A stretch of DNA of 64,000 nt from Myxococcota bacterium. Lineage in GTDB: Bacteria; Myxococcota_A; UBA9160; UBA6930. The notes beneath the pieces were generated by a model. That model saw only the letters and a list, made by a program, of their open reading frames with translations, had not been told where the DNA came from and did no database searches. A program made the translations under genes and the position numbers. Where the stretch lies: assembly GCA_965223415.1 (NCBI GenBank), contig OZ245002.1, positions 5,000,757 through 5,064,756 on the forward strand. Reading direction: 5' to 3'. Below, piece by piece: positions 9,793 to 28,680 of the stretch (its first letter is position 1; each line of letters opens with the position of its first letter).

Positions 9793-12700
9793 AGGCCGAC
9801 GTCCGTCACCGAGTGGCCGAACAGGCCATCGACCGCCCTGCGGAGCGCCGGCGAGGGGTCGACCGCTCGGCTGTCCGGCAGGGCCATCACGGTCTCACTC
9901 TCCCCGGGAATCATCAGGTGGAGGAGGACGCTGCAGTCGCCCGCGTGGTCGCTCAGGACGTCGCCCAGGGCGGTGAGCCGATCGCGACTCGCCTCCTCGG
10001 CCCGGATGCGGATGTGCACGCGGGCGGCCAGCCGCTCCTCCGCCTGGGCCAGCTCGAACACGTCCCGCAGCAGCAGCTTCGGCGGGTCGGCGCTCTCGAG
10101 GGTCCCGGTGACGATCAACGGGAGGGCGGCCTGGCTGGCATCGGCTCCGGACGCGAGCGCCCCTCGCAAGAGCTCCCGGTGGGTGGCGTAGGGCTCGGAG
10201 AAGATCACGAGCTCGAAGCCGCCCTCCAGGTCCTCGATCGTGCCGAAGGCCATGGTCTGGCCGCGCCGGGTGCGGGTCTCTCGCAGCCCGGTGATCAGGC
10301 CGCCCACCCGCACCTCGCGCCCCACCCACTCGGCGGCGGTCGTGGCGCTCGTGTCCGTGAAGCGGCCCAGGGCGGGCAGGTGCTGCTCCAACGGGTGCCC
10401 GGTGACGTAGAAGCCGAGTACTTCCTTCTCGTAGCCGAGCCGCTCCTGGTCGGTCCAGGGGGCTGCCGCCGGCAGCTCCGTCGGCCCGATCAGCTCGTCG
10501 GCGGCGTCGCCGAACAGGCTCTCCTGACCGATCTCGCGATCGCGCTGGGCGGCGGCCCCGGTCTCGAGGGCCGCATCGAGGCCGGCCCACAGGGCGGCCC
10601 GGTTCTCGTGGAAGGAATCGAAGGCGCCGCACTTCACCAGGCTCTCCGCCACGCGCCGGTTGACCCGGCGACCGTCGATGCGCCGGGTGAAGTCGTGGAG
10701 CCCCTGGAAGGGGCCTTCGGCCCTGCGCGCCGCCAGGATCGACTCGATGGCGCCCTCGCCGACGTTCTTCACGCCGGCCAGCCCGAAACGGATGCCCTCG
10801 GCCACGGGCGTGAAGTCCCGTTCGGACTCGTTCACGTCGGGCGGCAGCACCTCGATCTTGCGCTCCTTCGAGTGCGCGATGTAGCGCGAGAGCTTGTCGT
10901 GGTTGCCGGCCTCGATCGAGAGCAGGGCCGCCAGGAACTCGCGCGGGTGGTTCGCCTTCAGGTAGGCGGTCTGGTAGGTGAGGTAGGCGTAGGCGGTCGA
11001 GTGGGCCTTCGGGAAGCCGTAGCCGGCGAACTCGGCCATCAGGGTGAAGAGCTCGTCGGCCTTCTTCGGGTCGATGCCGTTCTGCCGCGCGCCGCCTACG
11101 AACTTGTCCCGGTGCTTGGCCATCTCCTCGGGCTTCTTCTTGCCCATGGCCCGCCTCAGCAGGTCCGCCTCGCCGAGCGTGTAGCCGCCCAGACGGTTGG
11201 CGATCTGCAGCACCTGGTCCTGGTAGACGATGACGCCGAGGGTCTCCTCCAGCAGCTCCTCGAGCTCCGGGACGAGGTACTCCACCTTCGTCACGCCGTG
11301 CTTGCGGGAGACGTAGTCGTCCACCATCCCGGAGCCGAGCGGTCCGGGGCGGTAGAGGGCGATGAGCGGGATCACCTCCTTGAAGCTCCGGGGCTTGAGC
11401 TTCGAGACCAGGTCGGTCATGCCCGAGGACTCCATCTGGAAGACGCCCTCGGTATCGCCCTGGCACAAGAGGTCATAGCTGGGCTCGTCGTCCAGCGGGA
11501 TCGTCTCGATGGAGAAGTCCGGGAAACCGCCGGCGCGGATGTGCTTCTCGGCGCCCGCGATGATCGTGAGCGTGCGCAGGCCCAGGAAGTCGAACTTGAT
11601 CAGGCCGACCTTCTCGACGCATCGCATGTCGTACTGGGTCATCACGTCGCCGGTCTTCGAGTCCCGGTAGAGCGGGACCATCTCGATCAGCGGTCGCGTC
11701 CCGATCACGACCCCGGCGGCGTGGGTGGAGGCGTGGCGGGTCAGTCCCTCGAGCTTGCGAGCCGTCGCGAGGAGCTTCGCCACCTGGCCGTCCGCCTCGC
11801 CGCGGGTGCGCAGCTCCGGGCTCTGCTCGAGGGCCTGGTCCAGGCTGATGCCGAGGGTCTCGGGGACGAGCTTGGCGATCCGGTCCACGTCGCCGTAGGG
11901 GATGCCGAGCACCCGGCCCACGTCCCGGATCGCGGCCCGGGCCTGCAGGGTCCCGAAGGTGATGATCTGGGAGACCCGGCGGCCGTCGTCGCCCCGATCC
12001 GGCTCGTCGTACTTGTTCGAGACGTAGCGGATCACCTCCTCGCGCCCGCGCATGCAGAAGTCCACGTCGATGTCCGGCATGGAGACCCGCTCGGGGTTCA
12101 GGAAACGCTCGAAGATGATGTCGTACTCGATCGGATCGACACCGGTAATGTCGAGGCTGTAGGCTGCCAGGCTGCCTGCCGAGGAGCCCCGCCCCGGGCC
12201 CACCGGGATGCCGTGGCGCTTCGCGTAGCCGATGAAGTCCGCGACGATCAGGAAGTAGCCGGCGAAGCCCATCTGCTGGATCACGCCCAGCTCGTACTCG
12301 AGGCGCTTGGTGTAGCCCTCGTGCTTGCCCTCGAAGGGTTGGTCGGGCTCCATGCCGAGGCGCCGCCGCAGCCCCTCCCAGGCGTCCCGCTCCAAGACCT
12401 CCTCGCGGGTCAGGCCGGCGGGCACCTGGAACTCGGGCATGTGGTAGGTGTCCATCGACAGCTCGAGATCGCAGCGCTCGGCGATCTCCATGGCGTTGTG
12501 CACCGCCTGGGGGTGGTCGTGGAAGACCTCGAGCATCTCCTCGCCGCTCTTGACGAAGAAGCCCTGGCCGTCGAAGCGGAGCCGGTTCGTGTCGTCCAGG
12601 TTCGACGCGGTGCCGATACAGAGCAGCGCGTCGTGGTGGTCGTGGTCGTGCTCCTCCAGGTAGTGGGCGTCGTTGGTGGCGAGGAGCGGGAGGCGCAGGT

Positions 12701-13308: not shown

Positions 13309-14904
13309 CTACTCCCACTCGATGGTGGCGGGAGGCTTCGAGGAGATGTCGTACACGACGCGGTTGACCCCCTGGACCTCGTTCGTGATGCGGTTCGAGA
13401 CCGCGGCCAGCATGTCGTCCGGCAGCCGGGACCAATCGGCCGTCATCGCGTCGATGGAGCTGACACAGCGGAGCGCGATGCAGTTCTCGTAGGTACGCGC
13501 GTCGCCCATCACGCCGACGCTCTGGATCGGGAGGAACACCGCGAAGGCCTGCCAGATGGCGTCGTAGAGGCCGGCCCGCCGGATCTCCTCGATCAGGATC
13601 GCGTCGGCCTGGCGCAGGATGGCCAGGCGCTCCCGGGTGACCTCCCCCATGATGCGGATGGCCAGGCCCGGCCCGGGGAACGGGTGGCGCCCGACAATCT
13701 CCTCCGGCAGGCCGAGGGTCCGCCCCGCCTCCCGGACCTCGTCCTTGAAGAGCTCGCGCAGCGGCTCGACCAGCTCGAGGTGCATGCGCTCGGGCAGGCC
13801 GCCCACGTTGTGGTGGGTCTTGATCGTCGCCGAGGGCCCGCGCACCGAGACGCTCTCGATCACGTCCGGGTACAGGGTGCCCTGGACCAGGAAGTCCGCT
13901 CCGCCGAGCTTCCTGGCCTGCTCCTCGAAGACGTCGATGAAGAGGTGGCCGATGATCCGGCGCTTCCGCTCCGGGTCGGTGACATCGGTGAGCAGCCGCA
14001 GGAAGCGCTCGCTGGCATCCACGGTAACGAGGGGGATGCCCAGGTGCTCGCCGAAGGCGCGCTCCACCTCCTCCCGCTCGCCCTGCCGCAGGAGCCCGTG
14101 GTCGACGAAGATGCAGGTCTGCCGCTCGCCGATGGCGCGGTGCACGAGCGCCGCGGCGACGGAGGAGTCGACGCCGCCCGAGAGGCCGCAGATCACCCTG
14201 CCCTCGCCCACCTGGGTGCGCACCGCGTCGCAGGCCTCTTCGACGAAGGCATCCATGGTCCAGCTGCACTCGCAGCCGCAGATGCCGTGGACGAAGTTGC
14301 GGAGGATCCGGTCCCCCTCCTCGGTGTGGACCACCTCCGGGTGGAACTGGAGGCCGAAGATCGGCCGGTCCCGGTGCCCCACCGCGGCGAAGGGCGAGCT
14401 CTCGCTGGTCGCCAGCACCTCGAAGCCCTCCGGGAGCCGCAGCACCCGGTCGCCGTGGCTCATCCAGACCGTCCGCTCCGCGCCGCCGTTCAGCCCCGCG
14501 AACAGCGGGTGCTCCGCGCTCTTCAGCTTGAGGAGCGCCCGGCCGTATTCGTGGTCGTCGGCGCTCTCGACCAGCCCGCCGAGCTGGTGGGCCAGGAGCT
14601 GGAGGCCGTAGCAGATCCCGAGGGTCGGAAGACCCAGCTCGAGCACCGCCGGGGCGATCCGCGGGGCGTCCTCCGCCAGGACACTCGCCGGCCCGCCGGA
14701 GAGCACGAGCCCGGCAGGGCGCCAGGCACGGACCTCCTCCGCCGAGAGCGTCGGCGGATGGATCTCGCAGTACACCTGCTGCTCCCGGATGCGGCGGGCG
14801 ATCAGCTGGGTGTACTGGGAGCCGAAGTCCAGAATCAGGATGCGGTCGCGGTGTGAGCCGGACGGTGCGCTCTCGGTGCGGTCTCGGTGGGCGTCGGTCG
14901 ACAA
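13309..14904 (-). CDS. guaA: GMP synthase (glutamine-hydrolysing)
   Basis: GATase domain ([27 protein letters not shown]), PP-loop [10 protein letters not shown], and the C-terminal dimerisation end KPPATIEWE. The exact start is uncertain. Confidence 0.95.
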
Positions 14905-14980: not shown

Positions 14981-16540
<1,560 letters not shown>

Positions 16541-16627
16541 TCACCCGCCCCCGAGTTGGCGACCAAGTGTACCAGCCGGGGGCCCCATTCGCTTCCTCGA
16601 TCGGGCCGGCTCGGCGTGGAGCGCCCG

Positions 16628-17050
16628 CTAGATCAGGCGGTCGAGCCCGCTGCGGAGGGTGCTGGCGAGATCGCGGAGGATCGCCTCCAGGATTCGCGTC
16701 GCGGCGCGCGGTGCGTCGTCGGACAGGCGCAGGAAGGCGCTGCGAGGGAAGAGCAGCACCCGGGAGGCCTCGGCCGCCGCCGCGGTGAGCTCCCGGCGAC
16801 CGAGGGCGGCCAGAGAGGTACCGCCCAGGTGCCGGCCGGCGGGCAGCGTGACGAGCTCGCCCACCCGGGCGCTCGAGAGCAGCAGCGAGCCCAGGGCCAC
16901 CAGCACCAGCCCGTCGGCCTCGTCGCCCTCCTCCACCACGATCTCACCCATGCCGAGCTCCCGCGCCTCGACGAGATCGCTCACCATGGCGAGCTCCTCC
17001 TCGCTCAGCTCCGCGAAGGGCGCGAAGCGCTTGAGATCGGCGCCGTTCAT
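16628..17050 (-). CDS. stand-alone cyclic-nucleotide-binding-like domain protein
   Basis: Only the last 140 aa of ORF 16628..17884 are used, starting MNGADLKRFAPFAELSEEELAMVSDLVEARELGMGEIVVEEGDEADGLVLV, a CAP-effector-domain pattern. The ATG overlaps the upstream stop (ATGA at 17047-17050). The phosphate-binding cassette looks atypical (GGTSLAALGRRELTA). Confidence 0.78.
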   Translation of the reverse strand: MNGADLKRFAPFAELSEEELAMVSDLVEARELGMGEIVVEEGDEADGLVLVALGSLLLSSARVGELVTLPAGRHLGGTSLAALGRRELTAAAAEASRVLLFPRSAFLRLSDDAPRAATRILEAILRDLASTLRSGLDRLI

Positions 17051-18588
17051 GGCAGGACCCGTCCCAGCATGGTGCCCAGCAAGGCGACCGGGTCGCGCTC
17101 GCCCTCCAGCGGCAGCAGGAAGACCGAGGCCTGATCGAGGAGGCCGAGGCTTGGCTCCAGCTCCGCCCGCGCGAGCTTCTCGCCCTTCGGCAGCACGATC
17201 ACGTGGAAGACCCGGGCTTCCGGGCCCCGGCTGCGGATCTGCTCGACCAACGGCCGCAGCCGCTCCTCGTCCTCGTGATGGGGCCAGCGCATGAGCAGCA
17301 GGGTGCCGAGGGCACCGTGGGTCAGGGCGGGCCAGCAGGCGGCGTAGCGCGGGTCGCTCGGCACCTGAAGGAGCTGGACCATCAGGCCCTCGCCGACCTC
17401 GATGCGTCCCAGCACCGCCACGTCTTCCGGGCGGTACTCGCCCGAGCCACCGGGCTCCATGCGCACGCCCGGCAGGGCCGCGAGCACGCGGACGAAGTCC
17501 CGGGTCCCCGCCGGGTCCGCCGCCGCCAGCAGCAGCTTGGCCTCCTTGGCCGCGCTGCCTCGGGGCCGACCCGCCTGCAGCCACTCCCGCAGGCGCCGCT
17601 TCTGGGCGGTATCGAAGAGGCCCTCGAGGCTGCCCGCCTCGCCTTGCTCGGCCTCGCGGCGCAGCTGGACGAGCCCGCGCTCGCAGAGGGTCTGGAGGGT
17701 GCGGAGCACCTGGTAGTCCGGGAAGCTGGTCCGGTCGAGCAGGTCGCCGACCCGCTCGTCGCGCTCGAGCAGGCCCAAGAGCTCCTGGGTCACCGGGTGG
17801 AGCGCGGAGGGCAGCTCCTCGCGCGGCACGGCCAGGCTCACCCGAGCGGAGGTCGGCGGCAGGGACTCGCGCAGCTGGTCCCACTCGTCGAGCTGGCGCA
17901 GCGCCTCCATCAGGAGGGCCCGTGTCGGCGTGGTGATCCGCGGCGCCATGGTCACCGTGCCCGGCGTGAAGGCGAAGCGGCCCTCCCGCCAGGAGAGCAT
18001 GCGGAAGAGCGCCTTCTCGCCCTCCACCCGGCCCGCGGTCGCCTGCACCAGGTTGCCGTCGCGCAGGATCAGGGCGCCCTGCTCGTCCTGGTGGCCGCCC
18101 TCCTCCCGGGCCAGCTCGATCGTCCCGGTCCGTCGGTTCATGTGGAAGAGCTGGAGCAGATCGGTGAGCGGGATCTGGGCGAGCTTGCCCTGGACCTCCT
18201 GCTGGGCTTCCGCTTCGCGCTCCACCGCGTCGATGCGCTCGCGCTGGGCCAGGATCGCTTCGATTCGCAGGGCCACGTCCTCCGCCGAAGCGGACGGCGG
18301 CAGGGCGTCGTCGAAGAAGCCGCCGTTGATCGGGTCGTCGCCGAGGAAGAGGAAGCGAACCCCTTGGGTCCGCGGGTTGGCCCTTAGGATCTTCGCGAGG
18401 GTGCCGGCATCGATCAGCTCCAGATCGACCGGCGCCACCAGGACGTCGGGCACGTCCGCCAGCGCGGCCTCGAGGGCGGCCGCGCCGGTCCGCACGCAGC
18501 TCGTCGCGTAGCCGCGGGCGGCGCAGGCGTCCGCGAGCTGGCGCGCCCGGCTGGGCAGGCTCTCGGCGATGAGGATCGCGCTACTCAC
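17047..18588 (-). CDS. receiver-like / PATAN (DUF4388) / small-GTPase-like (no P-loop) multidomain protein
   Basis: 513 aa. The N-terminus has a CheY-like pattern (AILIAES...DVLVAPVDLELIDAG) without an obvious conserved Thr or Lys. The DUF4388 signature is IPLTDLLQLFHMNRRTGTIEL...GEKALFRMLSWREGRFAF. C-terminal residues ~348-513 follow MglA/Ras-like strand order, but with ADPAGTRD in place of GxxxxGK[ST]. Confidence 0.78.
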   Translation of the reverse strand: MSSAILIAESLPSRARQLADACAARGYATSCVRTGAAALEAALADVPDVLVAPVDLELIDAGTLAKILRANPRTQGVRFLFLGDDPINGGFFDDALPPSASAEDVALRIEAILAQRERIDAVEREAEAQQEVQGKLAQIPLTDLLQLFHMNRRTGTIELAREEGGHQDEQGALILRDGNLVQATAGRVEGEKALFRMLSWREGRFAFTPGTVTMAPRITTPTRALLMEALRQLDEWDQLRESLPPTSARVSLAVPREELPSALHPVTQELLGLLERDERVGDLLDRTSFPDYQVLRTLQTLCERGLVQLRREAEQGEAGSLEGLFDTAQKRRLREWLQAGRPRGSAAKEAKLLLAAADPAGTRDFVRVLAALPGVRMEPGGSGEYRPEDVAVLGRIEVGEGLMVQLLQVPSDPRYAACWPALTHGALGTLLLMRWPHHEDEERLRPLVEQIRSRGPEARVFHVIVLPKGEKLARAELEPSLGLLDQASVFLLPLEGERDPVALLGTMLGRVLP

Positions 18589-18617
18589 CGATCGGGTTCT
18601 CCATCTCCCGGCTCGCG

Positions 18618-20537
18618 CTACTCACCGATCGGAATCCCAAGGTCGTGGCCCAGCTGGAAGGCCAGCTGCTCGACCACCACCGGATCGGAGGTGTGGAAGG
18701 TGGTGGCGTCGTCGGCGCTGCCGTCTTGCAGGAACGCATACGAGGCTCCCTCGCCCATGTAGACGAGGAAGGGCTGCTCGCGGGTGCCGGAGCTCGGCGC
18801 CACCCACGTGACCGGAACGCCCGGCATCAGCTGCTCGTCGCGCTCGGCGAAGAGGAAGACGTCCGTGTGGGGCGTGGTGCCGCGCAGCTGCTCCAGGCCC
18901 CCGCGCAGGGAGCCGGCCTCGCCGCCGGGCGGCGCCAGGAAGAGCAGCCCCCGCTGATGGGGATTGCGGCTCACCTCGTCGAGAAGGAAGCGCGCCATCT
19001 GGTCGCCGAGCTCCCCGCGCCCTTCGTCGCCTTCGGCCAGGAGGCTCTCCAGGAGCCGCCGGAAGGGGACCTCCTCCAGCTCGTAGCGGCGGAGCAGGCT
19101 CTTGCGGTCCTCCTCGATGCGCCGCTCGAGGCAGGCGTGCAGGGAGGTCCGGTCGACACCGTTCGACGGGAAGGTGGCCATGGCGGAAAGGACCACGGGC
19201 CGGTCGTCGCCCAGCTCCCGGAGCGCCGGACTGCGCTCCACCGCCGTCCGCAGCCGCCGCTTCGCCACCGCCGAGCCCAGGCTGTCGCACTCGGGCAGCA
19301 TGACCAGGTACTCGTGGTCGCTCTGGGTCGCCAGCAGGTCGGTGACCCGCACCGCCTTCTCCAGATCGGCCACCACCGCCTGGATCCAGGCGCTGAACTC
19401 CCGCAGCGAGAGGCGCTCGCGCACGGGGCCGATCGGGTCCAGCTGCATGCGCACGAGCGAGACACTGCGGCCGAAGCGCTTGGCCTTCTGGAGCTCGTGG
19501 TGGAGCACGTCGTCGAGGTAGGCGCCGGTGTAGGCGCGAGTGGTCGGGTCCTTGAAGGAGCGTCGCTCGAGGGACTGGAACTCGATCGCGTTGGCCAGCG
19601 CCTGGCTCGCGAACAGCGCGAAGCGCTCGGCCACCTCCCGGTCGGCCGCGTCGAATTCGGCGCCGTCGAGCCGGTCGGTCAGGCGCAGCACACCCAGCAA
19701 GCGGCCGTCGTGGCGAAGGGAGACGTAGAGCGGGGCCCGGGACGCACCGGTGCCCTCCGGCTGCAGCGAGCGGCAGCCCGGGTCCCGGAGTGGCTGGAGC
19801 GCTTCGGGCAGGCGATCCAGGACGAGCTGCGTCTCCTCCTCGTCGACCCGCACCAGGCCGCCCACGCCGCACAGCTCGAGTGCCCGCGGCGGGTCCCCGT
19901 CCGCGAGCCAGGCGACCCCGGCGTGGGCGTTCGTCTCCAGGCAGAGCACCTCGACCACGCGATCGGCCAGGGGCTCCAGCGAAAGCGTCGAGAACAAGCT
20001 CAGCGCTCGCTCGTACTGGGCGAAGTGGCCCATGAAGGACAGATTCTCGGCGACCAGGCGGTCGTGCTCGGCGTGCATGGCCCGGCGTTCGAGCACGCCG
20101 TCGATCGCGCGCAGCAGCGAGGTGCGGTCGATGGGCTTGAGCAGGTAGTCCGTCGCACCGAGCCGCATCGCTTCCACGGCGGTCTTCACGTCGCCCACGC
20201 TGGTGACCACCACCACGTCCTGCTCCGGCCAGCGCTCCTTCACCTGGCGGACGAGCTCGCGGCCGTCCATCTCGGGCATCACCAGATCCGTGAGGACCAG
20301 GTCGACCGGCTCCTCCTCCATCAGGGCGAGGGCCTCGGCGCCGCTTCCGGCCGTGACGACCTCGAAGTCTTCCTGCTGAAGGAGGTCCTCGAGGAACACC
20401 CGGAAGTAGAGCTGGTCGTCGACCGCGAGGATGCGCGCCTGGTTCAAGGCTCTTGCCTCGCGTGATGGGTCCGGGCCTGGTTCAAGGATCACCCCTCCCG
20501 GATCCTGTCCGGGCATGGTTCGTAGGCCCTTCCTCAC
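18618..20537 (-). CDS. response regulator with GAF-like, degenerate GGDEF and DICT-like domains
   Basis: 639 aa. REC domain (RILAVDDQ, LVLTDLVMPEMDG, YLLKP). GAF-like middle region. GGDEF-like region with RVTD then SDHEY instead of GG[DE]EF. C-terminal VFLFAERDE...EQPFLVYMGEGASYAFLQDG...FHTSDPVVVEQL resembles a DICT domain. The GTG start overlaps the miaB stop; an ATG at 20516 is an alternative start. Confidence 0.8.
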   Translation of the reverse strand: MRKGLRTMPGQDPGGVILEPGPDPSREARALNQARILAVDDQLYFRVFLEDLLQQEDFEVVTAGSGAEALALMEEEPVDLVLTDLVMPEMDGRELVRQVKERWPEQDVVVVTSVGDVKTAVEAMRLGATDYLLKPIDRTSLLRAIDGVLERRAMHAEHDRLVAENLSFMGHFAQYERALSLFSTLSLEPLADRVVEVLCLETNAHAGVAWLADGDPPRALELCGVGGLVRVDEEETQLVLDRLPEALQPLRDPGCRSLQPEGTGASRAPLYVSLRHDGRLLGVLRLTDRLDGAEFDAADREVAERFALFASQALANAIEFQSLERRSFKDPTTRAYTGAYLDDVLHHELQKAKRFGRSVSLVRMQLDPIGPVRERLSLREFSAWIQAVVADLEKAVRVTDLLATQSDHEYLVMLPECDSLGSAVAKRRLRTAVERSPALRELGDDRPVVLSAMATFPSNGVDRTSLHACLERRIEEDRKSLLRRYELEEVPFRRLLESLLAEGDEGRGELGDQMARFLLDEVSRNPHQRGLLFLAPPGGEAGSLRGGLEQLRGTTPHTDVFLFAERDEQLMPGVPVTWVAPSSGTREQPFLVYMGEGASYAFLQDGSADDATTFHTSDPVVVEQLAFQLGHDLGIPIGE

Positions 20538-21952
20538 GACGGGGTCGGAAAGGCGCCCTCTTCATCGGCGGATCGTCCTGGCTCCGTGAGTGTGCCGCGA
20601 AGCGGGACCGGGCGGCCGATCAAGGAGTGCGGGGTCGCGTCGACGATCTCCACCTCCAACAGGCTGCCCCCGGGGGCTCGGTGGTGGACGTTCACGACCC
20701 GGTGCTGGGGGTCCCGGCCCCGGAGCTGGCCCGGCGATCTCCCGGTCGCGCCCTCTACGAGGATCTCGGCGCGCTCCCCGACCCGGGCCCGGTGGGCCTG
20801 GAGCGTCAGGCGGCGCTGGAGGGCCTGGAGCCGCTCCAGGCGCTCCTGGGCGACCTCCGGCGGCACCCGGGCCTCCCGGCGCGCGGCCGCGGCCGTGCCA
20901 GGCCGCGGCGAGTATTTGAAGGAGTACGCGTCCACGAAGCCCACCTCCTCCACCAGGGCGAGGGTGGCCTGGAAGTCCGCTTCGGTCTCACCGGGGAAGC
21001 CGACGATCAGGTCGGTGGTGAGGACCAGGTCCGGCCGGGCCGCCTGGAGCGCACGGGCCCAGTCGCGGAAGTCGTCGGCGGTGTAGCGCCGACGCATGGC
21101 CTCGAGGACGCGATCCGAGCCGCTCTGGAGCGGCAGGTGGACGTGAGGGCAGAGCTCCGGGATCTCGGCGTGGGCCCGCACCAGGGCCTCGTCGAAGAAG
21201 CTCGGGTGGGGGCTCGTGTAGCGGATGCGATCCAGGCCCGGGATCGCCGCCAGCCGCCCCAGCAGCTCGGCGAACGCCAGCGTTCCGGCGGCCTCGGCCC
21301 GGCCCCGGCGCAGGTCGTGCCGGCCGTAGGCATTCACGGTCTGACCGAGCAGGGTCACCTCCCGCACGCCGCCCCCGGCCAGGGCCCGGGCCTCGGCGAG
21401 GATCCGCTCGGCGGGCCGACTGATCTCCCGCCCCCGGGTAGTCGGGACGATGCAGAAGCTGCAGAACAGGTCGCAACCTTCCATGACGGTCAGGAAGGCC
21501 CGCCCGGGGGTCCGGTCCCGAAACGCCGGGTGCCGCTCGGGCAGATCGAATCGCTCGAGGGACGCGACCACTCCGGTGCGGGCCACCCGTCGGCCGGTCC
21601 GGGCGGCCTCGATCATCTCTGGGACGTAGCGCAGGTTGTGGGTACCGAACACGAAGTCGACGTGGCCAAAGCGCCCGAGCAGCGCGTCACCCTCCTGCTG
21701 GGCGACGCAGCCCCCGACCCCGAGCACCCGCTCCGGCGCCGCGCGCTTCCACTCGCGCAGCGCTCCCAGGTCGCTGTAGAGCTTGTGCTCGGCCTTCTCC
21801 CGGATCGAGCAGGTATTGATGATGAGGAGCTCGCTCGTCTCCTCGTCGTCCGCGGAGCCCCAGCCGGCGTGGTGGAGCAGGTTCGCCAGCTTGTCCGAAT
21901 CGTGGACGTTCATCTGGCAGCCGTAGGTGCGGAGGGCGAAGCGGCGCGGCAC
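20534..21952 (-). CDS. miaB: tRNA-2-methylthio-N6-dimethylallyladenosine synthase
   Basis: 472 aa. MPRRFALRTYGCQMNVHDS (UPF0004 cluster), radical-SAM CDLFCSFCIVP, and a TRAM C-terminus. The start codon is GTG. Confidence 0.95.
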   Translation of the reverse strand: MPRRFALRTYGCQMNVHDSDKLANLLHHAGWGSADDEETSELLIINTCSIREKAEHKLYSDLGALREWKRAAPERVLGVGGCVAQQEGDALLGRFGHVDFVFGTHNLRYVPEMIEAARTGRRVARTGVVASLERFDLPERHPAFRDRTPGRAFLTVMEGCDLFCSFCIVPTTRGREISRPAERILAEARALAGGGVREVTLLGQTVNAYGRHDLRRGRAEAAGTLAFAELLGRLAAIPGLDRIRYTSPHPSFFDEALVRAHAEIPELCPHVHLPLQSGSDRVLEAMRRRYTADDFRDWARALQAARPDLVLTTDLIVGFPGETEADFQATLALVEEVGFVDAYSFKYSPRPGTAAAARREARVPPEVAQERLERLQALQRRLTLQAHRARVGERAEILVEGATGRSPGQLRGRDPQHRVVNVHHRAPGGSLLEVEIVDATPHSLIGRPVPLRGTLTEPGRSADEEGAFPTPS

Positions 21953-21958
21953 GGCGGC

Positions 21959-21988
21959 AGCCTACCCGAGAGCGCCGGCGAGCGTCAA
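21959..21988 (-). promoter_or_regulatory. candidate sigma70-type promoter placing the miaB GTG at or next to the transcription start (possible leaderless mRNA)
   Basis: Minus strand reads TTGACG (21988-21983), an 18-nt spacer, then TAGGCT (21964-21959). The -10 ends 6 nt before the GTG at 21952. No purine-rich Shine-Dalgarno lies in between. Confidence 0.3.
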
Positions 21989-22097
21989 AGTGTCCGGATT
22001 TCCTGGAAAAACCTGAACTTCACGCTCAAGGAACAGGGGCAACCTACGGAAGTTGCTGGCCTTTGCGGATCACCAACCGTGTTCTGCGAAATGATGT

Positions 22098-22131
22098 TTG
22101 ACAACGCGGGCCGGCCTGGCACATACTCGGC
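22098..22131 (+). promoter_or_regulatory. candidate plus-strand promoter (sigma70-like and overlapping sigma54-like motifs)
   Basis: TTGACA at 22098-22103, then 17-18 nt to ACATAC/CATACT at 22121-22127. This overlaps TGGCAC-N5-CGGC at 22117-22131. No annotated plus-strand gene lies downstream. Confidence 0.25.
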
Positions 22132-22154
22132 TTCACCGACTCCAACAGGTTCAT

Positions 22155-22273
22155 GGAGCGGCGGTGGATAAGGCATTTCTCACCGAAATGTCCAACCTCT
22201 CACCCCCCATCATCTATCCACCGCCTCTCCGCCCTGAACGAAGCCCCGCCCGGCGCGAGCCTGGCGGGGCTTC
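22155..22273. ncRNA. candidate structured RNA element (nested hairpins plus a GC-rich terminal hairpin), strand unresolved
   Basis: Outer stem GGAGCGGCGGTGGATA (22155-22170) pairs with TATCCACCGCCTCTCC (22215-22230), 16 bp with one mismatch. Inner hairpin is CATTTC-tcacc-GAAATG (22174-22190). A perfect 11-bp hairpin GAAGCCCCGCC (22240-22250) / GGCGGGGCTTC (22263-22273) follows. Confidence 0.3.
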
Positions 22274-23370
22274 TCGTTGGAGGCGAAGAGCACGGGGCCG
22301 ACCGCATCCGCGAGCATCCGTCCCACCTCGCGCTCGCCCTCCGGCGTGAAGTGGCAGTCGTCCATCAGCCAGCGTTCTCGGTCGAGGCGGTAGAGGTCCA
22401 CCAGCGGAGCGGCCAGCTCGGCGGCGACTTCGCGCGTCGCCGCGTTGTTGGCTCGCGCCCGGGCCTCGAGGCTCGGGAGCAGCTCGGGCCGATGGGTGAG
22501 CACGCTCGACGCGTAGCCCTCGGTCCGGAACGGGACGGTAGCGAGGACCGGGACCGCTCCGAGGGCCCGTCCACCGGCGACGAAGCGGCGCAGGTTCGCC
22601 TCGAAGGTGGCGCCGATCCCCGGCCGTTCCAGGTTCGCGGCGAGCTCGTCGACGGTCGGCCGGTTGTCGTAGCGGATCGAGCCGTAGAGGGGGTGCTCGG
22701 CACCGGCCGAGAACCCGAGGCGCCCGCGGCCGCTGGCCAGTACGAGCATCGCCAGATGGGAGACCCGGAACAGCCGCTTGAAGGGCCGATTGCTCGCCCG
22801 TAGGTCGTAGTCGAATCGGCGGTAGTGGCTGTAATCGTCCCGGTAGTCGTTCCAGAGCTGGGGGAAGATCTCGTTGCGGCCGTCGGTCATCACCACCACG
22901 TCGGGCTCGAGCCCGGCGACGTGGGCGTTCAGGTGGAGCAGGGTCTCGCGGGAGGTCCAGCCGGGCACGCCGGCGTTCACGACCTCGACCGGGCGCCCCG
23001 GGTAGCGGCGGGCCAGCTCCTCGCCGAGGCGCACGGCGCCGGTCTCGTCGTCCTCCACCCCGATCCCGTAGACCGTCGAGGCGCCCATCAGCACGACGCG
23101 GCGCACGCCCGCGGGCTTGGGGACGCGAAACGGCGGGCTCCGGAAGCCCCTCTCGTCATGGCGAAAGCCCGGGGCCTCGAAGTCCGGCGTGAGGCGGTAG
23201 CCCAGCGCCTCGTCCCACGTGAAGCGTCCCCGGGTCTCGGTCTCGTGGGTGAGCTGGTGGGCCTTGGCCTCGGGCCAGCTCCCCGCCACGAACAGGCGGG
23301 CGCCGACCTCGGCCATCAGCACGACGAACGCGACGCTGGCGGCCGCCAGCAGGAGCTCCACTCGGGTCAC
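22210..23370 (-). CDS. SGNH/GDSL-family hydrolase, N-terminally membrane-anchored
   Basis: 386 aa. TM segment LLLAAASVAFVVLMAEVGA, block I VVLMGASTVYG, NAGVPGW, and block V DDCHFTPEG (DxxH). The GTG start overlaps the dipeptidase stop. Confidence 0.75.
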   Translation of the reverse strand: MTRVELLLAAASVAFVVLMAEVGARLFVAGSWPEAKAHQLTHETETRGRFTWDEALGYRLTPDFEAPGFRHDERGFRSPPFRVPKPAGVRRVVLMGASTVYGIGVEDDETGAVRLGEELARRYPGRPVEVVNAGVPGWTSRETLLHLNAHVAGLEPDVVVMTDGRNEIFPQLWNDYRDDYSHYRRFDYDLRASNRPFKRLFRVSHLAMLVLASGRGRLGFSAGAEHPLYGSIRYDNRPTVDELAANLERPGIGATFEANLRRFVAGGRALGAVPVLATVPFRTEGYASSVLTHRPELLPSLEARARANNAATREVAAELAAPLVDLYRLDRERWLMDDCHFTPEGEREVGRMLADAVGPVLFASNEKPRQARAGRGFVQGGEAVDR

Positions 23371-24581
23371 GGGGCTTCCGATCGGCCGTCGGGTCGGCGG
23401 GCTTCAGTCGCCCCGCCCTCCCGGGGCAACACGCTCCGCAGCACCCGGAGAGCGTTGCCCGCCAGGACCCCCCGGATCTCGTCGTCGCGGAAGCCCTCGG
23501 CGACGAGTGCGTCGACGAGGAGCGAGAGTCCCGTCGTGTCGAAGGCGGTGGTGACAGCGCCGTCGAAGTCCGAGCCCAGGGCCACGTGATCGGCTCCCAC
23601 GAGGTCGCGCACGTGGGCCGCGGCCCGGGCCACGTGCTCGGGGGAGGTGCCGCACACCGCGCCGGCGAAGTAGCCGATGCCCACCACGCCTCCGGTGGCG
23701 GCGATGCCCCGAAGCTGGGCGTCCGCGAGGTTGCGCGGCCCCGGACAGGTGGCCTGGACGCCGGTGTGGGAGGCCACCAGGGGGCCGACCCCGAGCGCCA
23801 GGAGGTCGTCGACGGTCGCCGGCGAGGCATGGGCCACGTCGATCGCCACCCCGAGCGCTCGCGCGCGCCGCACGGCGGCCCGGCCCAGCTCGGTGAGGCC
23901 GTACTTCGCCTCACCCGCCGATGAGCCGCCGACGCGGTTGTCGAAGAAGTGGGTAGGCGCCATCATGCGCAGCCCCGCGGCGAACAGCGCGTCCACCCCG
24001 CCGAGCTCGCCGTCGAGGGCCTGCATGCCCTCGAGGCCCAGCATCCCGCCCACGACGGCCTCGCCCCGGCGCCGCGCCGCCACGACGGCGTCGAGGTCGG
24101 CCCGCGTCCGGACGATCCGCAGGCGGCCGTCGGATCCACCCGCGAGCTCGACCAGGCGGGCCGCCTGATGCTCGGCCCGGGCCCGGCGACTCGTCCAGGT
24201 GGCCACGGGCCAGCGCTGGAGCACGGCCAGCAGGGTGATCAGGTCCGGCTCGTCGGCCGGGGTGCGCTCGAAGTTCTGGCCCGCGGGCACCTGGGTCACG
24301 AGACCGAACACCTGGAGCGCCACCTGGCCCTCCAACAGGCGGGGCAGGTCCACCTGGCCGTGGGCGAGCTGCCGGCTGAGGTCCCGATCCCAGAGGAGCG
24401 GATCCGCGTGGAGATCCACCGCACCGGCCTCGGCGAGGAGCGCGCGGGCGCGCTCGCTGCCCGCGAAGGGCGGCTCGCCCGCCACCCGGTTGATGCGGCG
24501 ATCCAGCTCGCCGGGCAGCCAGAGAAAGGCGGCGAGCCCGAGCAGCGCGACCCCGCCGGCGACGAGGGCGAGCCACCTCAC
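23367..24581 (-). CDS. membrane dipeptidase (peptidase M19 family)
   Basis: 404 aa. VDLHADPLLW, MMAPTHFFDN, IDVAHASPATVDD, VASHTG, GIGYFAG and HVALGSDFDG follow the renal-dipeptidase family motif order. An N-terminal signal/anchor is present. Confidence 0.85.
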   Translation of the reverse strand: MRWLALVAGGVALLGLAAFLWLPGELDRRINRVAGEPPFAGSERARALLAEAGAVDLHADPLLWDRDLSRQLAHGQVDLPRLLEGQVALQVFGLVTQVPAGQNFERTPADEPDLITLLAVLQRWPVATWTSRRARAEHQAARLVELAGGSDGRLRIVRTRADLDAVVAARRRGEAVVGGMLGLEGMQALDGELGGVDALFAAGLRMMAPTHFFDNRVGGSSAGEAKYGLTELGRAAVRRARALGVAIDVAHASPATVDDLLALGVGPLVASHTGVQATCPGPRNLADAQLRGIAATGGVVGIGYFAGAVCGTSPEHVARAAAHVRDLVGADHVALGSDFDGAVTTAFDTTGLSLLVDALVAEGFRDDEIRGVLAGNALRVLRSVLPREGGATEARRPDGRSEAP

Positions 24582-24620: not shown

Positions 24621-26045
24621 CTACAGAACCAGCCGGTCGACGACCCGGGAGAGCTGCTTCAGGTTCCGGCACTCCTCGGCGACGTCCGTATGGGGCAGGT
24701 ATTTGTCCATCACGCTGTCGCCGAAGCCCCAGGCGGAGGGGCTCTCCGGGTTCAGCCAGACGACGTCCTTGGCCTTGTTGCGGATGTCGCGCAGGCACCA
24801 GGCGCGGGGGTCGTTGTAGTTGTTCCGGGCGTCGCCCAGGATGAGCACGGTCGTCTTGTTGTCGATGGAGGACAGGAAGTTCTGCCAGAAGTGGTGGAAG
24901 GCGAAACCGAAGTTCGAACGGGTATAGACGTTGATCACGTCGCCGCCGTCGAGGGCCTTCTCGATGGCGTCGTTGATGTCCTTGTCCTTGAAGACCTGGG
25001 TCACCTCGCCCAGCTCGGACACGAAGACGAAGGCGCGGATCTTCGTGAAGCACTCCTGCAGGCTGTACATGAACTGCAGCATGAAACGGGAGACGTTGGC
25101 CACGGAGCTCGAGACGTCGCAGAGAATCACCAGCTTCGGCTTCTCCTTGCGGCGCTGCTTGAAGATCAGGTCGAAGGGCACGCCGCCGTGGGCCATGTTG
25201 CGGCGCAGCATGGTGTGGAGGTCGAGCTTGCCCTTCTTGAGCCGGCGTTTGCGGATCGAGAGCACGTTCTTGATGCGCTGGGCCAGCCGGGCGACCACCT
25301 CGCGCATCTTCTTGATCTCGTCCTCGGTGAGGTTGTAGAAGCTCTTCTCGAGCAGGCTCTCGCGGCGGAACTTCTCCATGTAGTCGAAGTTCTGCTGCTG
25401 GAGCTGGCGCTCGGTGTAGTTCCGGACGCTCTTGCGCAGGGCCTCCAGGAACTTGTCGATCAGCTCCATCAGGGCTTCGACCTCGGCGTCGCCCATACCC
25501 GACTCGCGGAGCTGCTGGGCCAGCTCGCGGAGCTGGTCCCCGGCCCCCTCGGCGTCCATCTGCTCCATCGTGCGCCGGGTGAAGAAGCCCAGCTGGAGCA
25601 TGTTCTCGATGCGCTCGACCCCGGCGGCCTCGGCCGCCTCCCGGATCAGCTGCTCGAGCTTGTCCAGATCCTGGGTAAGCAGCGCCTTGGCGAGCTCCGA
25701 CAGGTCGAGATCCTGCGGATTGCCCTCCATGTTCTGCATGCCGTCCTGGATGGCCTGCATCAGCTGCTCGAGGTCGAACTCGCCGCCCATCTCGCCTGCG
25801 GCGTTGTCGAAGGAGTTGCGCAGCCCGTCGTAGAAGGCCGACCAGTAGAGATCGAACATCTGGTCGAAGGTGGGGATGTCCTCGGAGCGCTTCACCATGG
25901 TGGTGCGCAGCGCGTCCTTGAAGATCTCCCGGTCGCCGAGGGAGAGCTCGTCGAGCGCCGTGAAGGCGTCGATCGACTCCGCCACCGACACCCGGATCCC
26001 GCTCTTCCGGAGCAGATTGGTGAAATCGACGATCTTCTGCTGCAC
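24621..26045 (-). CDS. VWA domain protein, CoxE-like
   Basis: 474 aa. The N-terminus MQQKIVDFTNLLRKSGIRVSVAESIDAFTAL is typical of CoxE-family proteins. The C-terminal VWA domain has a MIDAS-like LVILCDVSSSV. It is paired with a MoxR ATPase immediately upstream. Confidence 0.85.
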   Translation of the reverse strand: MQQKIVDFTNLLRKSGIRVSVAESIDAFTALDELSLGDREIFKDALRTTMVKRSEDIPTFDQMFDLYWSAFYDGLRNSFDNAAGEMGGEFDLEQLMQAIQDGMQNMEGNPQDLDLSELAKALLTQDLDKLEQLIREAAEAAGVERIENMLQLGFFTRRTMEQMDAEGAGDQLRELAQQLRESGMGDAEVEALMELIDKFLEALRKSVRNYTERQLQQQNFDYMEKFRRESLLEKSFYNLTEDEIKKMREVVARLAQRIKNVLSIRKRRLKKGKLDLHTMLRRNMAHGGVPFDLIFKQRRKEKPKLVILCDVSSSVANVSRFMLQFMYSLQECFTKIRAFVFVSELGEVTQVFKDKDINDAIEKALDGGDVINVYTRSNFGFAFHHFWQNFLSSIDNKTTVLILGDARNNYNDPRAWCLRDIRNKAKDVVWLNPESPSAWGFGDSVMDKYLPHTDVAEECRNLKQLSRVVDRLVL

Positions 26046-26055
26046 GGGGACCCCT

Positions 26056-27051
26056 CTAGTGCAGGACGCCCTTCTTGGCGGGCTTCGGCGCTTCGGCCTC
26101 CGCCGGCTTGCCCTCCGGGGCGGCCTCGGTCGCTTCCTCCGCCTTGCGGGTGATCAGCCGGCCGAGCTCGGCCTGGGTCTTCTTGATGTCGCCCTCGTAC
26201 TTGAGGATCACGTTCAGCGTGTCGCGCACCAGGTCCTCGTCCAGCTCGTTGGCGTTGAGCGCCAGGAGCGCCCGGGCCCAGTCGAGGGTCTCGCTGATCG
26301 AGGGCGTCTTCTTGAGGTCGAGCTTGCGCAGGCGCTGCATCACGCCCACCAGCTCTTCGGCCAGGCGTCGGTCGATGCCCTCGACCTTCTTGTCGAGGAT
26401 CCTCACCTCGAGCTCCTCGGTCGGGAAGTCGATGTAGAGGTGGAGGCAGCGGCGCTTGAGCGCGTCGCTCATCTCCCGGGCGTCGTTCGAGGTGAGGAAG
26501 ACGATCGGCTTGTGACGGGCCTCCAGGGTGCCGACCTCGGGCACCGTGACCTGGAAGTCCGAGAGCACCTCCAGCAGGAAGGCTTCGAACTCCGGGTCGC
26601 TCTTGTCCACCTCGTCGATCAGGAGCAGCGTGGGCTGCTCGGCCTGGATCGCGCGGAGGAGCGGCCGGGGCACGATGAAGTTCTCGGAGAAGAAGACGCT
26701 GTCCTCCTCGCCCACCCGGGCGGCGGCGTCCTTGACCGTGGTGGTCCCGGCCATCGCCTCGGAGAACTTCTCCTTCAGGATCTGGGTGTAGAGGAGCTGC
26801 TTCGAGTACTCCCACTCGTAGAGGGCCTTGGCCTCGTCGAGCCCCTCGTAGCACTGCAGCCGGATCATCGGCCGCCCAGTGGCGGCGGAGACGACCTTGG
26901 CGAGCTCGGTCTTGCCGACGCCGGCCGGGCCCTCCACCAGCACCGGCTTCTCCAGCTTCGACGCCAGGAAGACCACCGTCGCGATGTTCTTGTCGCAGAT
27001 GTAGTCCTGGGCGTCGAGCTGCTCGATGACTTGCTCGGGCGAGTCGAACAT
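26056..27051 (-). CDS. MoxR-like AAA+ ATPase (CoxD-like)
   Basis: 331 aa. Walker A GPAGVGKTELAK, YEWEYSKQLL, Walker B LLLIDEVDK, and a Lys/Ala/Glu/Pro-rich C-terminal tail. Confidence 0.9.
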   Translation of the reverse strand: MFDSPEQVIEQLDAQDYICDKNIATVVFLASKLEKPVLVEGPAGVGKTELAKVVSAATGRPMIRLQCYEGLDEAKALYEWEYSKQLLYTQILKEKFSEAMAGTTTVKDAAARVGEEDSVFFSENFIVPRPLLRAIQAEQPTLLLIDEVDKSDPEFEAFLLEVLSDFQVTVPEVGTLEARHKPIVFLTSNDAREMSDALKRRCLHLYIDFPTEELEVRILDKKVEGIDRRLAEELVGVMQRLRKLDLKKTPSISETLDWARALLALNANELDEDLVRDTLNVILKYEGDIKKTQAELGRLITRKAEEATEAAPEGKPAEAEAPKPAKKGVLH

Positions 27052-27061
27052 GGGGCTCCTC

Positions 27062-28342
27062 TCAGCTCATGAGATGCAGAACGTGCCCGAGCTTCTCCTT
27101 CTTCGTACGCAGGTACTCGAAGTTCTTCTCGTTGGGCTCGATCTCGAGGGGCACCCGCTCGACGATCGCGAGCTGGTAGCCCTCGATGCCGGCGCGCTTG
27201 CCCGGGTTGTTGGTGATGATGCGCATCTTGCGCACCCCGAGGTCGTGCAGGATCTGGGCGCCCACGCCGTAGTCGCGCAGGTCGGCGGCGAAGCCGAGGC
27301 GCTCGTTGGCCTGGACCGTGTCGAGGCCCTCCGAGTCCTGCAGGCCGTAGGCCTTGATCTTGTTCTTGAGCCCGATCCCGCGCCCTTCCTGGCGCATGTA
27401 GAGGATCACGCCCTGGCCCTCGTTCTCGATCATCTTCATGGCGGCTTCCAGCTGCTCGCCGCAATCGCAGCGCAGGGAGCCGAAGGCGTCGCCGGTCAGG
27501 CACTCGCTGTGCACCCGGACCAGGATCTCGTCGTCCTCGCGGATCTCGCCCTTCACGAGGGCGATGTGGTCGACGTGATCGATGTCGTTCTCGTAGACGA
27601 CGGCCCGGAAGTCGCCGCCGCCCACGGTCGGCAGCACGCACTCGCCGGCCCCGCGCACCAGCTTCTCGTTGCGCAGGCGGTACTCGATCAGGTCCGCGAC
27701 CGTGACGATCTTGAGATCGTGCTGTCGGGCGAAGGTGACCAGGTCCGGCATCCGGGCCATGGTGCCGTCGTCGTTCATGATCTCGCAGATCACGCCCGCC
27801 GGCTTCATGCCGGCCAGGCGGGCGAGATCAACGGAGCCCTCGGTCTGGCCGGCCCGGCGCAGGACGCCGCCGTCGCGGGCCCGCAGGGGAAAGATGTGGC
27901 CGGGCCGCACGATGTCCCGGGGCCGGGCGTCCTCGGCGATGGCCGTGGCGATGGTGTGAGCGCGATCGAAGGCCGAGATGCCCGTGGTCACGCCCTCGCG
28001 GGCCTCGATGGACACGGTGAAGGCCGTGCCGAAGCCGGACGAGTTCTCCGCGTCCGGCACCATCATCGTCAGGTTCAGCCGGTCGAGCTGCTCCTCGGTC
28101 ATCGGCAGGCAGATCAGGCCACGGCCGAACTTCGCCATGAAGTTGATCGCGTCGGGCGTGACGGCCTCGGCTGCCATGCACAGATCGCCTTCGTTCTCCC
28201 GGTCCTCGTCGTCGACGAGGATCACCATGCGGCCGGCGCGGATCTCCTCGATGGCCGTGTCGACGGCGACGATGACGTCGCTCGCGTCCACCGGCAGGCG
28301 CGTGGGTTCAGCCGGGTCGGGCTGCGATCGGGGGTCGCTCAT
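27062..28342 (-). CDS. ribBA: bifunctional 3,4-dihydroxy-2-butanone-4-phosphate synthase / GTP cyclohydrolase II
   Basis: An internal ATG at 28342 gives MSDPRSQ...[16 protein letters not shown] (DHBP synthase). The C-terminal half contains [21 protein letters not shown] (GCH II zinc site). Confidence 0.95.
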
Positions 28343-28430
28343 CGTTCCTCTCCGTACGGACCGCGAGGGTGGCACGGTTCCGTCGGGCGCGCGGCGGCCG
28401 GAGCTGGCGTTGGGGGGCAACTTGCTGAGC

Positions 28431-28459
28431 ACCCTATCAGCAGTTGACTCTCGTGTCAA
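28431..28459 (-). promoter_or_regulatory. candidate sigma70-type promoter for ribBA
   Basis: Minus strand reads TTGACA (28459-28454), a 17-nt spacer, then TAGGGT (28436-28431). It lies about 90 nt upstream of the ribBA ATG. The -35 is embedded in the palindrome TTGAC-tctcgt-GTCAA (28444-28459). Confidence 0.4.
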
Positions 28460-28680
28460 TCGCGGGAATTTCGCAAGTGCTGGTTCCCAAAGGGGTTTCG
28501 GCGCCTCAGCCTGACCGCAGGTCAGGCGGCGACCGGTCCTCGTTCGCTTCGCCCTGGCGCCGGGGACGGCCATCAACGAGGGCGCGCTCGGCTACCACCT
28601 GCGCGAAGGCGAGCACGACCTCACGAGCTGGGACTGGGAGCGCTTCCTCGACTGGGCGGACCGGGCGCTCCCGGGCGCAC

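Follow-up and report, generated by a model that had tools for sequence, protein, structure and literature searches.

A conserved gene trio beside miaB in Myxococcota pairs a predicted c-di-GMP effector with a PATAN-domain protein that ends in a Ras-like pseudo-GTPase

The window analyzed here is a 64,000-nucleotide (nt) stretch of DNA from a Myxococcota bacterium (GenBank assembly GCA_965223415.1, contig OZ245002.1, positions 5,000,757 to 5,064,756), and our subject is a set of three minus-strand genes, g1, g2, and g3, that lie downstream of the tRNA-modification gene miaB. The trio comprises a probable effector of cyclic diguanylate (c-di-GMP) and a PATAN regulator, both of known kinds, and what is new in it are two features that are unannotated in Pfam, a family-specific C-terminal domain in g1 and a bacterial pseudo-GTPase in g2. 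We tentatively favor, at rather less than even odds, the reading that the three proteins form a non-enzymatic adaptor complex that would respond to phosphorylation and c-di-GMP and would dock onto a cellular machine through its PATAN and pseudo-GTPase domains. A first-pass annotation made from the sequence had described three signaling genes following miaB, and the four co-oriented genes are indeed present:

20534-21952, minus strand: miaB, tRNA-i6A37 methylthiotransferase (UPF0004 E 2e-27, Radical_SAM 4e-26, TRAM 7e-7)
20448-20533, minus strand: miaB-g1 spacer, 86 nt, with a GAGG Shine-Dalgarno sequence 8 nt before the TTG start
18618-20447, minus strand: g1, 609 amino acids; REC, coiled linker, GAF, degenerate GGDEF with I-site, family-specific C-terminal domain
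17047-18588, minus strand: g2, 513 amino acids; pseudo-receiver, PATAN, winged-helix-like module, and Ras-like pseudo-GTPase (Pfam, AlphaFold)
16628-17050, minus strand: g3, 140 amino acids; stand-alone cyclic nucleotide (cNMP)-binding-like domain (PF00027, E 1e-8)

The minus-strand gene run was picked out by frame-specific G+C content at third codon positions (GC3), which is 0.92-0.94 in the trio and typical of the expressed genes of this genome. Identical proteins of 609 (P0121), 513, and 140 amino acids are annotated in the source genome, and each has many full-length homologues, with conservation running the full length of the proteins across hundreds of sequences at a mean column identity of 64-65%. 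The window is approximately 71% G+C, and many long antisense open reading frames (ORFs) in it are artefacts, as is the longest-ORF version of g3 (418 amino acids, 16628-17884), which runs 278 codons into g2 in another frame; the real g3 is the ATG-started 140-residue gene.

Scanning one genome per species turned up 460 g2 relatives, of which the best 80 loci were fetched. All 80 come from metagenome-assembled genomes (MAGs), and no cultured carrier appeared among the 240 listed g2 homologues or the best 80 of the 460 species-level loci. The neighborhood survey suggested in the first-pass annotation bears out the conservation of the trio beside miaB: g1 and g2 are adjacent in all 51 loci with enough flanking sequence (49 by tblastn, with L071 and L080 added by ORF reading), and miaB lies upstream on the same strand in 49 of the 51, including relatives whose g2 is only 27-33% identical; L062 and L076 retain g1-g2 without miaB. 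In a Myxococcota clade, in which g2 is 38-64% identical, the gene order is ribBA, AAA, VWA, miaB, g1, g2, g3, guaB, guaA, dnaE. The remote loci (g2 27-33% identical, 40-70% G+C, labeled Deltaproteobacteria or Thermodesulfobacteriota) have lost the other synteny and read miaB, BFN/DUF151, g1-like, g2-like, PHP. One such locus, L069, has a bifunctional-nuclease (BFN/DUF151) gene (E 5e-37) at 8221-8718 and a PHP-domain phosphoesterase gene at 11939-12586 bracketing g1-g2, and the same order recurs in L065, L068, L071, and L080.

The domains of g1, all on the minus strand, are placed as follows:

20103-20438: receiver domain (D10, D11, D54, T82, K104; E 3e-32 to the NtrC1 receiver)
19563-19979: GAF domain (Pfam; secondary structure in the model)
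19098-19553: GGDEF-like domain, catalytically degenerate (aligned to solved cyclases at E 5e-8 to 2e-6)
19338-19349: I-site RVTD (R367-D370), five residues before the A-site position
18621-19094: C-terminal domain of approximately 158 amino acids, alpha/beta, unannotated, family-specific

Pfam detects REC (E 3e-28), GAF (1e-6), GAF_2 (3e-6), and, below its cut-off, GGDEF (2e-4), and the AlphaFold model, with a predicted local distance difference test score (pLDDT) of 88.1, is matched by Foldseek to PleD (E 9e-18), WspR, and DgcR; the order of REC, GAF-like region, and GGDEF-like domain with SDHEY that had been read from the sequence is thereby confirmed by Pfam and alignment. Measured against the CheY set of D12, D13, D57, T87, and K109, the receiver has D10, D11, T82, and K104 invariant and D54 in at least 90% of 69 homologues, and all five residues are invariant in a 22-sequence alignment. 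The receiver is complete by this measure and is predicted to be phosphorylatable.

The GGDEF-like domain presents a different picture at its active site (A-site), where QSDHEY lies opposite YGGDEF or FGGEEF of solved cyclases, such that SDHEY replaces GG[DE]EF, and where LDPIGPVRE lies opposite DxDxFKxxND, placing IG..RE where the substrate- and metal-binding motif FK..ND sits. A canonical GG[DE]EF occurs in 0 of 119 family members, the pentapeptide varying freely as [SGTAD][DE]xx[FYL], and the Asn of the cyclase motif DxLTGLxNRR is replaced by Thr or Ser. The A-site is predicted from these alignments to be dead family-wide. The I-site residues R367, D370, and R398 are invariant in the 69 homologues, RVTD aligns opposite the RxxD of solved cyclases 6d9m, 4zmm, and 3ign, and RxxD is found in every remote g1 member read, down to 20-30% identity. 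R398 follows R367 by 31 residues, which is also the spacing between R359 and R390 in PleD. The first-pass annotation had called the key motifs of the trio degenerate, which holds for the g1 A-site, g2, and g3, but not for the D-D-D-T-K set of the g1 receiver or for its I-site. Because the receiver and I-site are invariant, g1 looks like a working sensor rather than a decayed cyclase, and it probably binds c-di-GMP.

A dead A-site together with a fixed I-site is, by analogy, what marks out c-di-GMP receptors such as PelD, PopA, and CdgA, with which g1 would share an inactive A-site, the RxxD I-site, and the distal Arg. The cytosolic part of PelD has the same GAF-GGDEF tandem as g1, but PelD is membrane-anchored and g1 has no anchor; PopA likewise carries receivers in front, but has two where g1 has a single intact one. 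In contrast to all three, g1, whose c-di-GMP binding is a prediction, adds the approximately 158-residue C-terminal domain that is found nowhere else, and is always paired with a PATAN/pseudo-GTPase gene.

This C-terminal domain is a confident alpha/beta domain in the AlphaFold model, covering the last 158 residues. It had previously been described as DICT-like, an identity that we reject, as Pfam scans of five diverse family members gave no match of any kind to the domain at E<=10, and the DICT accession (PF10069) is absent both from the precomputed domains of 120 homologues and from the remote members. Nor does the domain occur in the varied sensor architectures, with cyclases and kinases, expected of DICT: among 1.84 billion representative proteins its profile picks out only 149 clusters, full-length matches carry it at the C terminus (save one spurious fn3 match), and wherever Pfam detects any domain in a scanned member, the C-terminal domain comes after a GGDEF-like domain in the order (REC)-(GAF)-GGDEF-like. 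No Protein Data Bank (PDB) sequence matched it below E 0.4, and weak Rab matches of the profile, at E 0.4-1, are not significant. Homology of the domain to the pseudo-GTPase of g2 was rejected as well (hhalign probability 0.7%). Its fold class could not be read off a whole-model Foldseek search, which is dominated by REC and GGDEF matches.

The second protein, g2, has 688 full-length homologues and an AlphaFold model with a pLDDT of 87.8, and its four regions, on the minus strand, are:

18208-18588: pseudo-receiver, residues 1-127 (PleD receiver profile match 1e-10, with Ala/Pro opposite D53)
17869-18195: PATAN/DUF4388, residues 132-240 (PF14332, E 2.6e-25)
17653-17844: winged-helix-like module, residues 249-312 (invariant PDYQVLRT motif)
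17050-17616: Ras/Arf-like pseudo-GTPase, residues 325-513 (Foldseek; P-loop, DxxG, and NKxD lost)

Receiver positions were counted over 240 homologues. In approximately 116 aligned relatives of the Myxococcota clade the phospho-acceptor position is P, A, T, S, or G, and never Asp, and the position of Lys109 is non-basic throughout that clade; at the position of Thr87, where the column is gapped in the automated alignment, the window protein reads RFLFLG by manual reading. The remote clade keeps an Asp or Glu at the acceptor position, but without the acidic pair. Because one clade lacks the acceptor Asp and the other the acidic pair, the N-terminal domain is predicted to be a pseudo-receiver throughout the family. 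The PATAN domain that follows is present in all 14 g2 family members scanned.

Between PATAN and the C-terminal domain, the AlphaFold model places helices at residues 265-273, 280-286, and 291-303, and a strand at 307-310. This module contains the most conserved motif of g2, PDYQVLRT, in which D291-T297 are invariant, and it has sub-threshold Pfam matches to MarR_2 in 4 of the 14 members, with TrmB, DnaD_N, and HTH_20/27/52 in others.

The C-terminal domain resembles small GTPases in fold. Foldseek matches it to Rab8a, Arl8b, Rap2A, KRAS, and RalA at E 4e-6 to 3e-5 with TM-scores of 0.55-0.64, its profile matches IFT22 at 3.6e-4, with non-P-loop residues opposite GPQRTGKT, and 57 of the 60 listed weak profile matches (106 in all) are Arf, Rab, or IFT22. 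The nucleotide motifs, taken as GxxxxGK[ST] for G1, DxxG (TxxG in MglA) for G3, and [NT]KxD for G4, are occupied instead by AADPAGTRD, QVPSD, and PKGE or RKGE, and are restored in no clade; only the P and W of 'VP...PLW' are invariant. Sequence and model together indicate a Ras-superfamily fold lacking nucleotide motifs, which we designate a pseudo-GTPase. In register, 'VP....PLW...G..G.LLL' of g2 corresponds to 'DVGGQ...RPLW' of Arf and 'TVPGQ' of MglA, but neither g2 clade has the P-loop, the DxxG/TxxG glycine, or NKxD of those GTPases, and the g2 domain is fused to three others. A specific MglA ancestry was rejected, the shared register not being significant (hhalign E 1e-3 with one sequence, 0.06 with a profile). 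These results agree with the earlier description of g2 as a receiver-like domain without an obvious conserved Thr or Lys, a PATAN/DUF4388 domain, and a Ras-like fold without a P-loop, to which the winged-helix-like module is now added.

Among the closest known systems are the cyanobacterial PatA-type proteins PixG, PixE, LsiR, and PatA, in which PATAN/DUF4388 also sits next to a CheY-like domain and serves as a protein-binding output (bioRxiv 10.1101/2021.06.11.447907). Their order is PATAN-REC, whereas in g2 the receiver-like domain comes first; the g2 receiver in addition lacks the acceptor Asp or, in the remote clade, the acidic pair, the protein continues with the winged-helix-like module and the Ras-like domain, and no chemosensory gene cluster lies near the trio.

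The third protein, g3, is confirmed as a 140-residue stand-alone cNMP-binding-like domain with a non-canonical cassette, scoring 35.5 bits against a Pfam cut-off of 27.5. Its phosphate-binding cassette reads GGTSLAALGRRELTA and is located as follows:

16775-16828, minus strand: degenerate phosphate-binding cassette of g3, LGGTSLAALGRRELTAAA

When the window protein is aligned with CAP and with 46 homologues taken from the loci, the cassette Gly and Arg are retained, the ribose-binding Glu has become Gly or Ala in the Myxococcota clade, and the Ser/Thr next to the Arg has become a conserved Glu. Canonical binding of cAMP or cGMP is therefore unlikely. Like the cNMP domains of CRP/FNR proteins, g3 has a beta-roll, a C-helix, and the cassette Arg, but it stands alone without a helix-turn-helix (HTH) and differs at the two cassette positions just given. 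In one remote locus, L067 (g2 30% identical), a cNMP-like gene close to g2, at 7155-7610, keeps the canonical FGEGAL Glu, and the degenerate cassette of the Myxococcota-clade g3 may therefore be derived.

The junctions between these genes are close. The ATGA overlap of g2 and g3 at 17047-17050 is as first described, a 4-nt overlap is seen in approximately 30 of 43 loci (~70%), and g3 is predicted to be translationally coupled to g2 through it. The 29-nt gap between g1 and g2 (18589-18617) likewise stands, and it is created by a tandem duplication of 37 nt, with copies at 18573-18609 and 18610-18646 that are 76% identical and share a perfect core of 21 nt; one copy holds the g1 stop and the other the g2 GTG start. 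Overlaps of 8, 4, or 1 nt are common at this junction among relatives, and because four relatives show the 8-nt overlap, the gap appears to be secondary and the duplication recent.

The miaB/g1 junction had been given as a GTGA overlap at 20534-20537, and this is an artefact of taking the longest ORF: g1 occupies 18618-20447, leaving an 86-nt spacer to miaB. The start at TTG 20447 is placed there because the source genome calls the 609-residue protein, approximately 50 relatives have a start codon at exactly this position, approximately 10 have an in-frame stop 0-8 codons upstream of it, and a Shine-Dalgarno sequence precedes it in the window and likewise in relatives; the extra 30 N-terminal residues of the longest ORF are not conserved. 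Median gaps in relatives, from tblastn coordinates, are 77 nt for miaB-g1, 15 for g1-g2, -4 for g2-g3, and 165 for g3-guaB, and exact miaB-g1 spacers range from 21 to 219 nt, are GC-rich, and in more than half of cases are 69 nt or less. No intrinsic terminator-like sites were found between the genes of the unit and no sigma-70-like site on the minus strand there, a sigma-54 -24/-12 motif is absent from 50 miaB-g1 spacers, and Rfam gave no non-coding RNA or riboswitch match in 16300-22400. The short g1-g2 gap, the g2-g3 overlap, and the absence of terminator-like sites argue that g1-g2-g3 is a tight operon, and read-through from miaB is plausible. The proposal of a single transcript shared with miaB thus loses its overlap to the 86-nt spacer, but the short, terminator-free spacers of relatives keep co-transcription plausible. 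The 257-nt region upstream of miaB (21953-22209) is a probable promoter region of the unit, and the sole consensus sigma-70-like match within it, at 22098-22127, is on the opposite strand.

Domain content, motif status, folds, gene order, and conservation were observed, and from them we propose the following for c-di-GMP binding, the contacts among the three proteins, and their target. The intact receiver of g1 would be phosphorylated by a kinase, its dead GGDEF domain would bind c-di-GMP through the conserved residues of the I-site (R367xxD370 and R398) in the manner of PelD, PopA, and CdgA, and its GAF domain may supply a third input; these inputs would alter how the family-specific C-terminal domain engages g2. 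The g2 protein would be the output scaffold, with PATAN docking onto the target machine, which by analogy with the cyanobacterial PatA-type regulators could be a type IV pilus motor or another polar apparatus, and with the nucleotide-blind Ras/Arf-like domain offering a permanent "GTPase-shaped" partner surface. The g3 protein, made in a fixed ratio with g2 via the ATGA overlap, would be a small regulatory subunit, with a cNMP-like pocket that probably accepts a ligand other than cAMP or cGMP, or none. The earlier suggestion of a reader of phosphorylation and nucleotide messengers fits g1, with its intact receiver and I-site. As possible phosphorelay partners, we note two overlapping hybrid histidine kinases at 60437-63959 (REC-GAF-HisKA-HATPase and kinase-REC-kinase), the first of which shares its REC-GAF head with g1.

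The adaptor complex is consistent with selection on the whole set and with the adjacency of g1 and g2 in every informative locus, and it is supported by two precedents. In Synechocystis, PATAN by itself binds PilB1 and PilC and suffices as the output (bioRxiv 10.1101/2021.06.11.447907), and in Bdellovibrio the degenerate-GGDEF c-di-GMP receptor CdgA sits in a pole hub with RomR, a tetratricopeptide repeat (TPR) protein, and MglA (PMC3983030). Several observations weigh against it. The conserved neighbors (miaB, BFN/DUF151, PHP, guaBA) are housekeeping genes, and no pilus or motility gene lies near the trio in the window or in the 80 loci. Remote g1 proteins are often approximately 330 amino acids long, having the GGDEF-like and C-terminal domains with REC and GAF missing, and because of this phosphorylation appears not to be part of the ancestral core, which is predicted to pair a protein made of a dead, I-site-bearing GGDEF and the C-terminal domain with one made of the pseudo-receiver, PATAN, winged-helix-like module, and pseudo-GTPase. 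The g3 gene is missing in approximately 7 of 50 loci of the Myxococcota clade and in most of the remote ones. Finally, the winged-helix-like module of g2 is possibly a DNA-binding output.

This last point bears on the claim that the trio has neither an enzymatic nor a DNA-binding output: no recognizable enzyme domain is present, but because g2 carries the winged-helix-like module, it may bind DNA. The trio could then be a transcription-control module, in which g2 binds DNA and is modulated by g1, through c-di-GMP and phosphorylation, and by g3, a CRP-like sensor split from its HTH. The helix-helix-helix-strand topology at residues 265-310 and the weak HTH-family matches point this way, as does the resemblance of PDYQVLRT..L..RG, the most conserved stretch of g2, to a MarR-type recognition helix and wing, and what CRP proteins join in one chain, a cNMP domain and a winged HTH, is encoded here by overlapping genes. 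However, all of the HTH matches fall below Pfam cut-offs, the best at 17-18 bits versus 27, the region has no PDB sequence match, the putative recognition helix is not strongly basic, and DNA binding was judged unlikely for the cyanobacterial PatA-type proteins (bioRxiv 10.1101/2021.06.11.447907), such that we regard transcriptional control as unlikely, if still a serious contender. Less probable again is a tie to miaB and housekeeping, in which the module would sense the state of guanine nucleotides or a second messenger and pass it to tRNA modification, translation, or growth control. Such a tie would explain why the genes persist in the miaB transcription unit across distant lineages, even at 40-63% G+C, where g2 is 27-33% identical and other synteny is lost, behind spacers that are short, GC-rich, and terminator-free, and the neighbors guaB, guaA, and ribBA handle guanine nucleotides. 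Yet conserved order beside an essential gene can persist without shared function, a BFN gene intervenes between miaB and g1 in remote loci, L062 and L076 dispense with miaB, none of the trio's domains has a known contact with tRNA or MiaB, and the claimed miaB/g1 overlap is the longest-ORF artefact.

Two further readings are contradicted by the motif data and the strong conservation. The idea that g1 still works as a non-canonical diguanylate cyclase, which would make the trio a conventional REC-GGDEF pathway plus accessory proteins, could draw on the clear GGDEF fold (the PleD match) and on some remote g1 members that pass the Pfam GGDEF cut-off, but the variable pentapeptide, never GG[DE]EF in the 119 members, the IG..RE opposite FK..ND, and the Thr/Ser for the Asn of DxLTGLxNRR make it highly improbable. 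Scarcely credible, to our minds, is that the degenerate domains are decaying relics without current function: canonical motifs have been lost from the g1 A-site, the g2 receiver (Asp) and P-loop, and the g3 cassette (Glu and Ser), but full-length conservation extends over hundreds of homologues, GC3 is like that of expressed genes, the replacement residues are themselves conserved (VP...PLW in g2, R-E in g3), and the g1 and g2 models are both confident folds.

The genes that surround the trio, all on the minus strand, are the following:

13309-14904: guaA
14981-16444: guaB
22210-23370: GDSL lipase
23367-24581: M19 dipeptidase
24621-26045: CoxE-like VWA
26056-27051: MoxR-like AAA
27062-28576: ribBA
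28681-29328: MglA-family GTPase (E 3e-52 to MglA structures)

The MglA-type GTPase reported 8 kb from the trio is confirmed at 28681-29328, but it is syntenic in the Myxococcota clade only and unrelated housekeeping genes lie between it and the trio, such that a functional link is conjectural. It retains an intact P-loop, TVPGQ, and NKRD and forms, with ribBA, the MoxR-like AAA, and the CoxE-like VWA, a block (24621-29328) whose synteny with miaB-g1-g2-g3 is preserved in over 30 Myxococcota MAG loci; in the window, the GTPase gene has no MglB/Roadblock gene as a direct neighbor. The AAA/VWA pair resembles the NCBIfam MadB/MadC families, scoring below the Mad cut-offs, and our literature search found nothing on MadB/MadC in Myxococcus. 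Elsewhere in the window, a single ORF at 44145-45500 is an unusual fusion in which a BrkB/YihY-type membrane domain (E 1e-53) is followed at the C terminus by an Rrf2-type winged helix (E 2e-8). A role in anti-phage defense was rejected, PADLOC giving nothing meaningful.

The first-pass annotation knew of no characterized system of this composition, and our literature search, which found no paper describing the gene set, upholds this; the PATAN proteins of M. xanthus are uncharacterized in the literature found. A bolder idea, to which we give a small chance, is that g1-g2 is an ancient second-messenger switch of a type not described before, in which a c-di-GMP-loaded dead cyclase would regulate a PATAN-fused pseudo-GTPase, c-di-GMP replacing the role that GTP has in MglA/Arf-type polarity switches, and which would owe its place in the miaB transcription unit to its coupling of the translational or tRNA-modification state to cell polarity or surface behavior in uncultured Myxococcota and Desulfobacterota-like lineages.

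The trio has an unusual architecture with wide conservation, and as the carriers found are all uncultured, its immediate impact is limited. If the assignments made here are correct, g1 would represent a distinct c-di-GMP effector family with a new C-terminal domain. PATAN-domain proteins, which to our knowledge are barely studied outside cyanobacteria, would gain a defined partner set. Pseudo-GTPases have, as far as we know, been studied mainly in eukaryotes, and g2 would provide a clear bacterial one, a Ras-like fold that is without any nucleotide motif and yet under selection.

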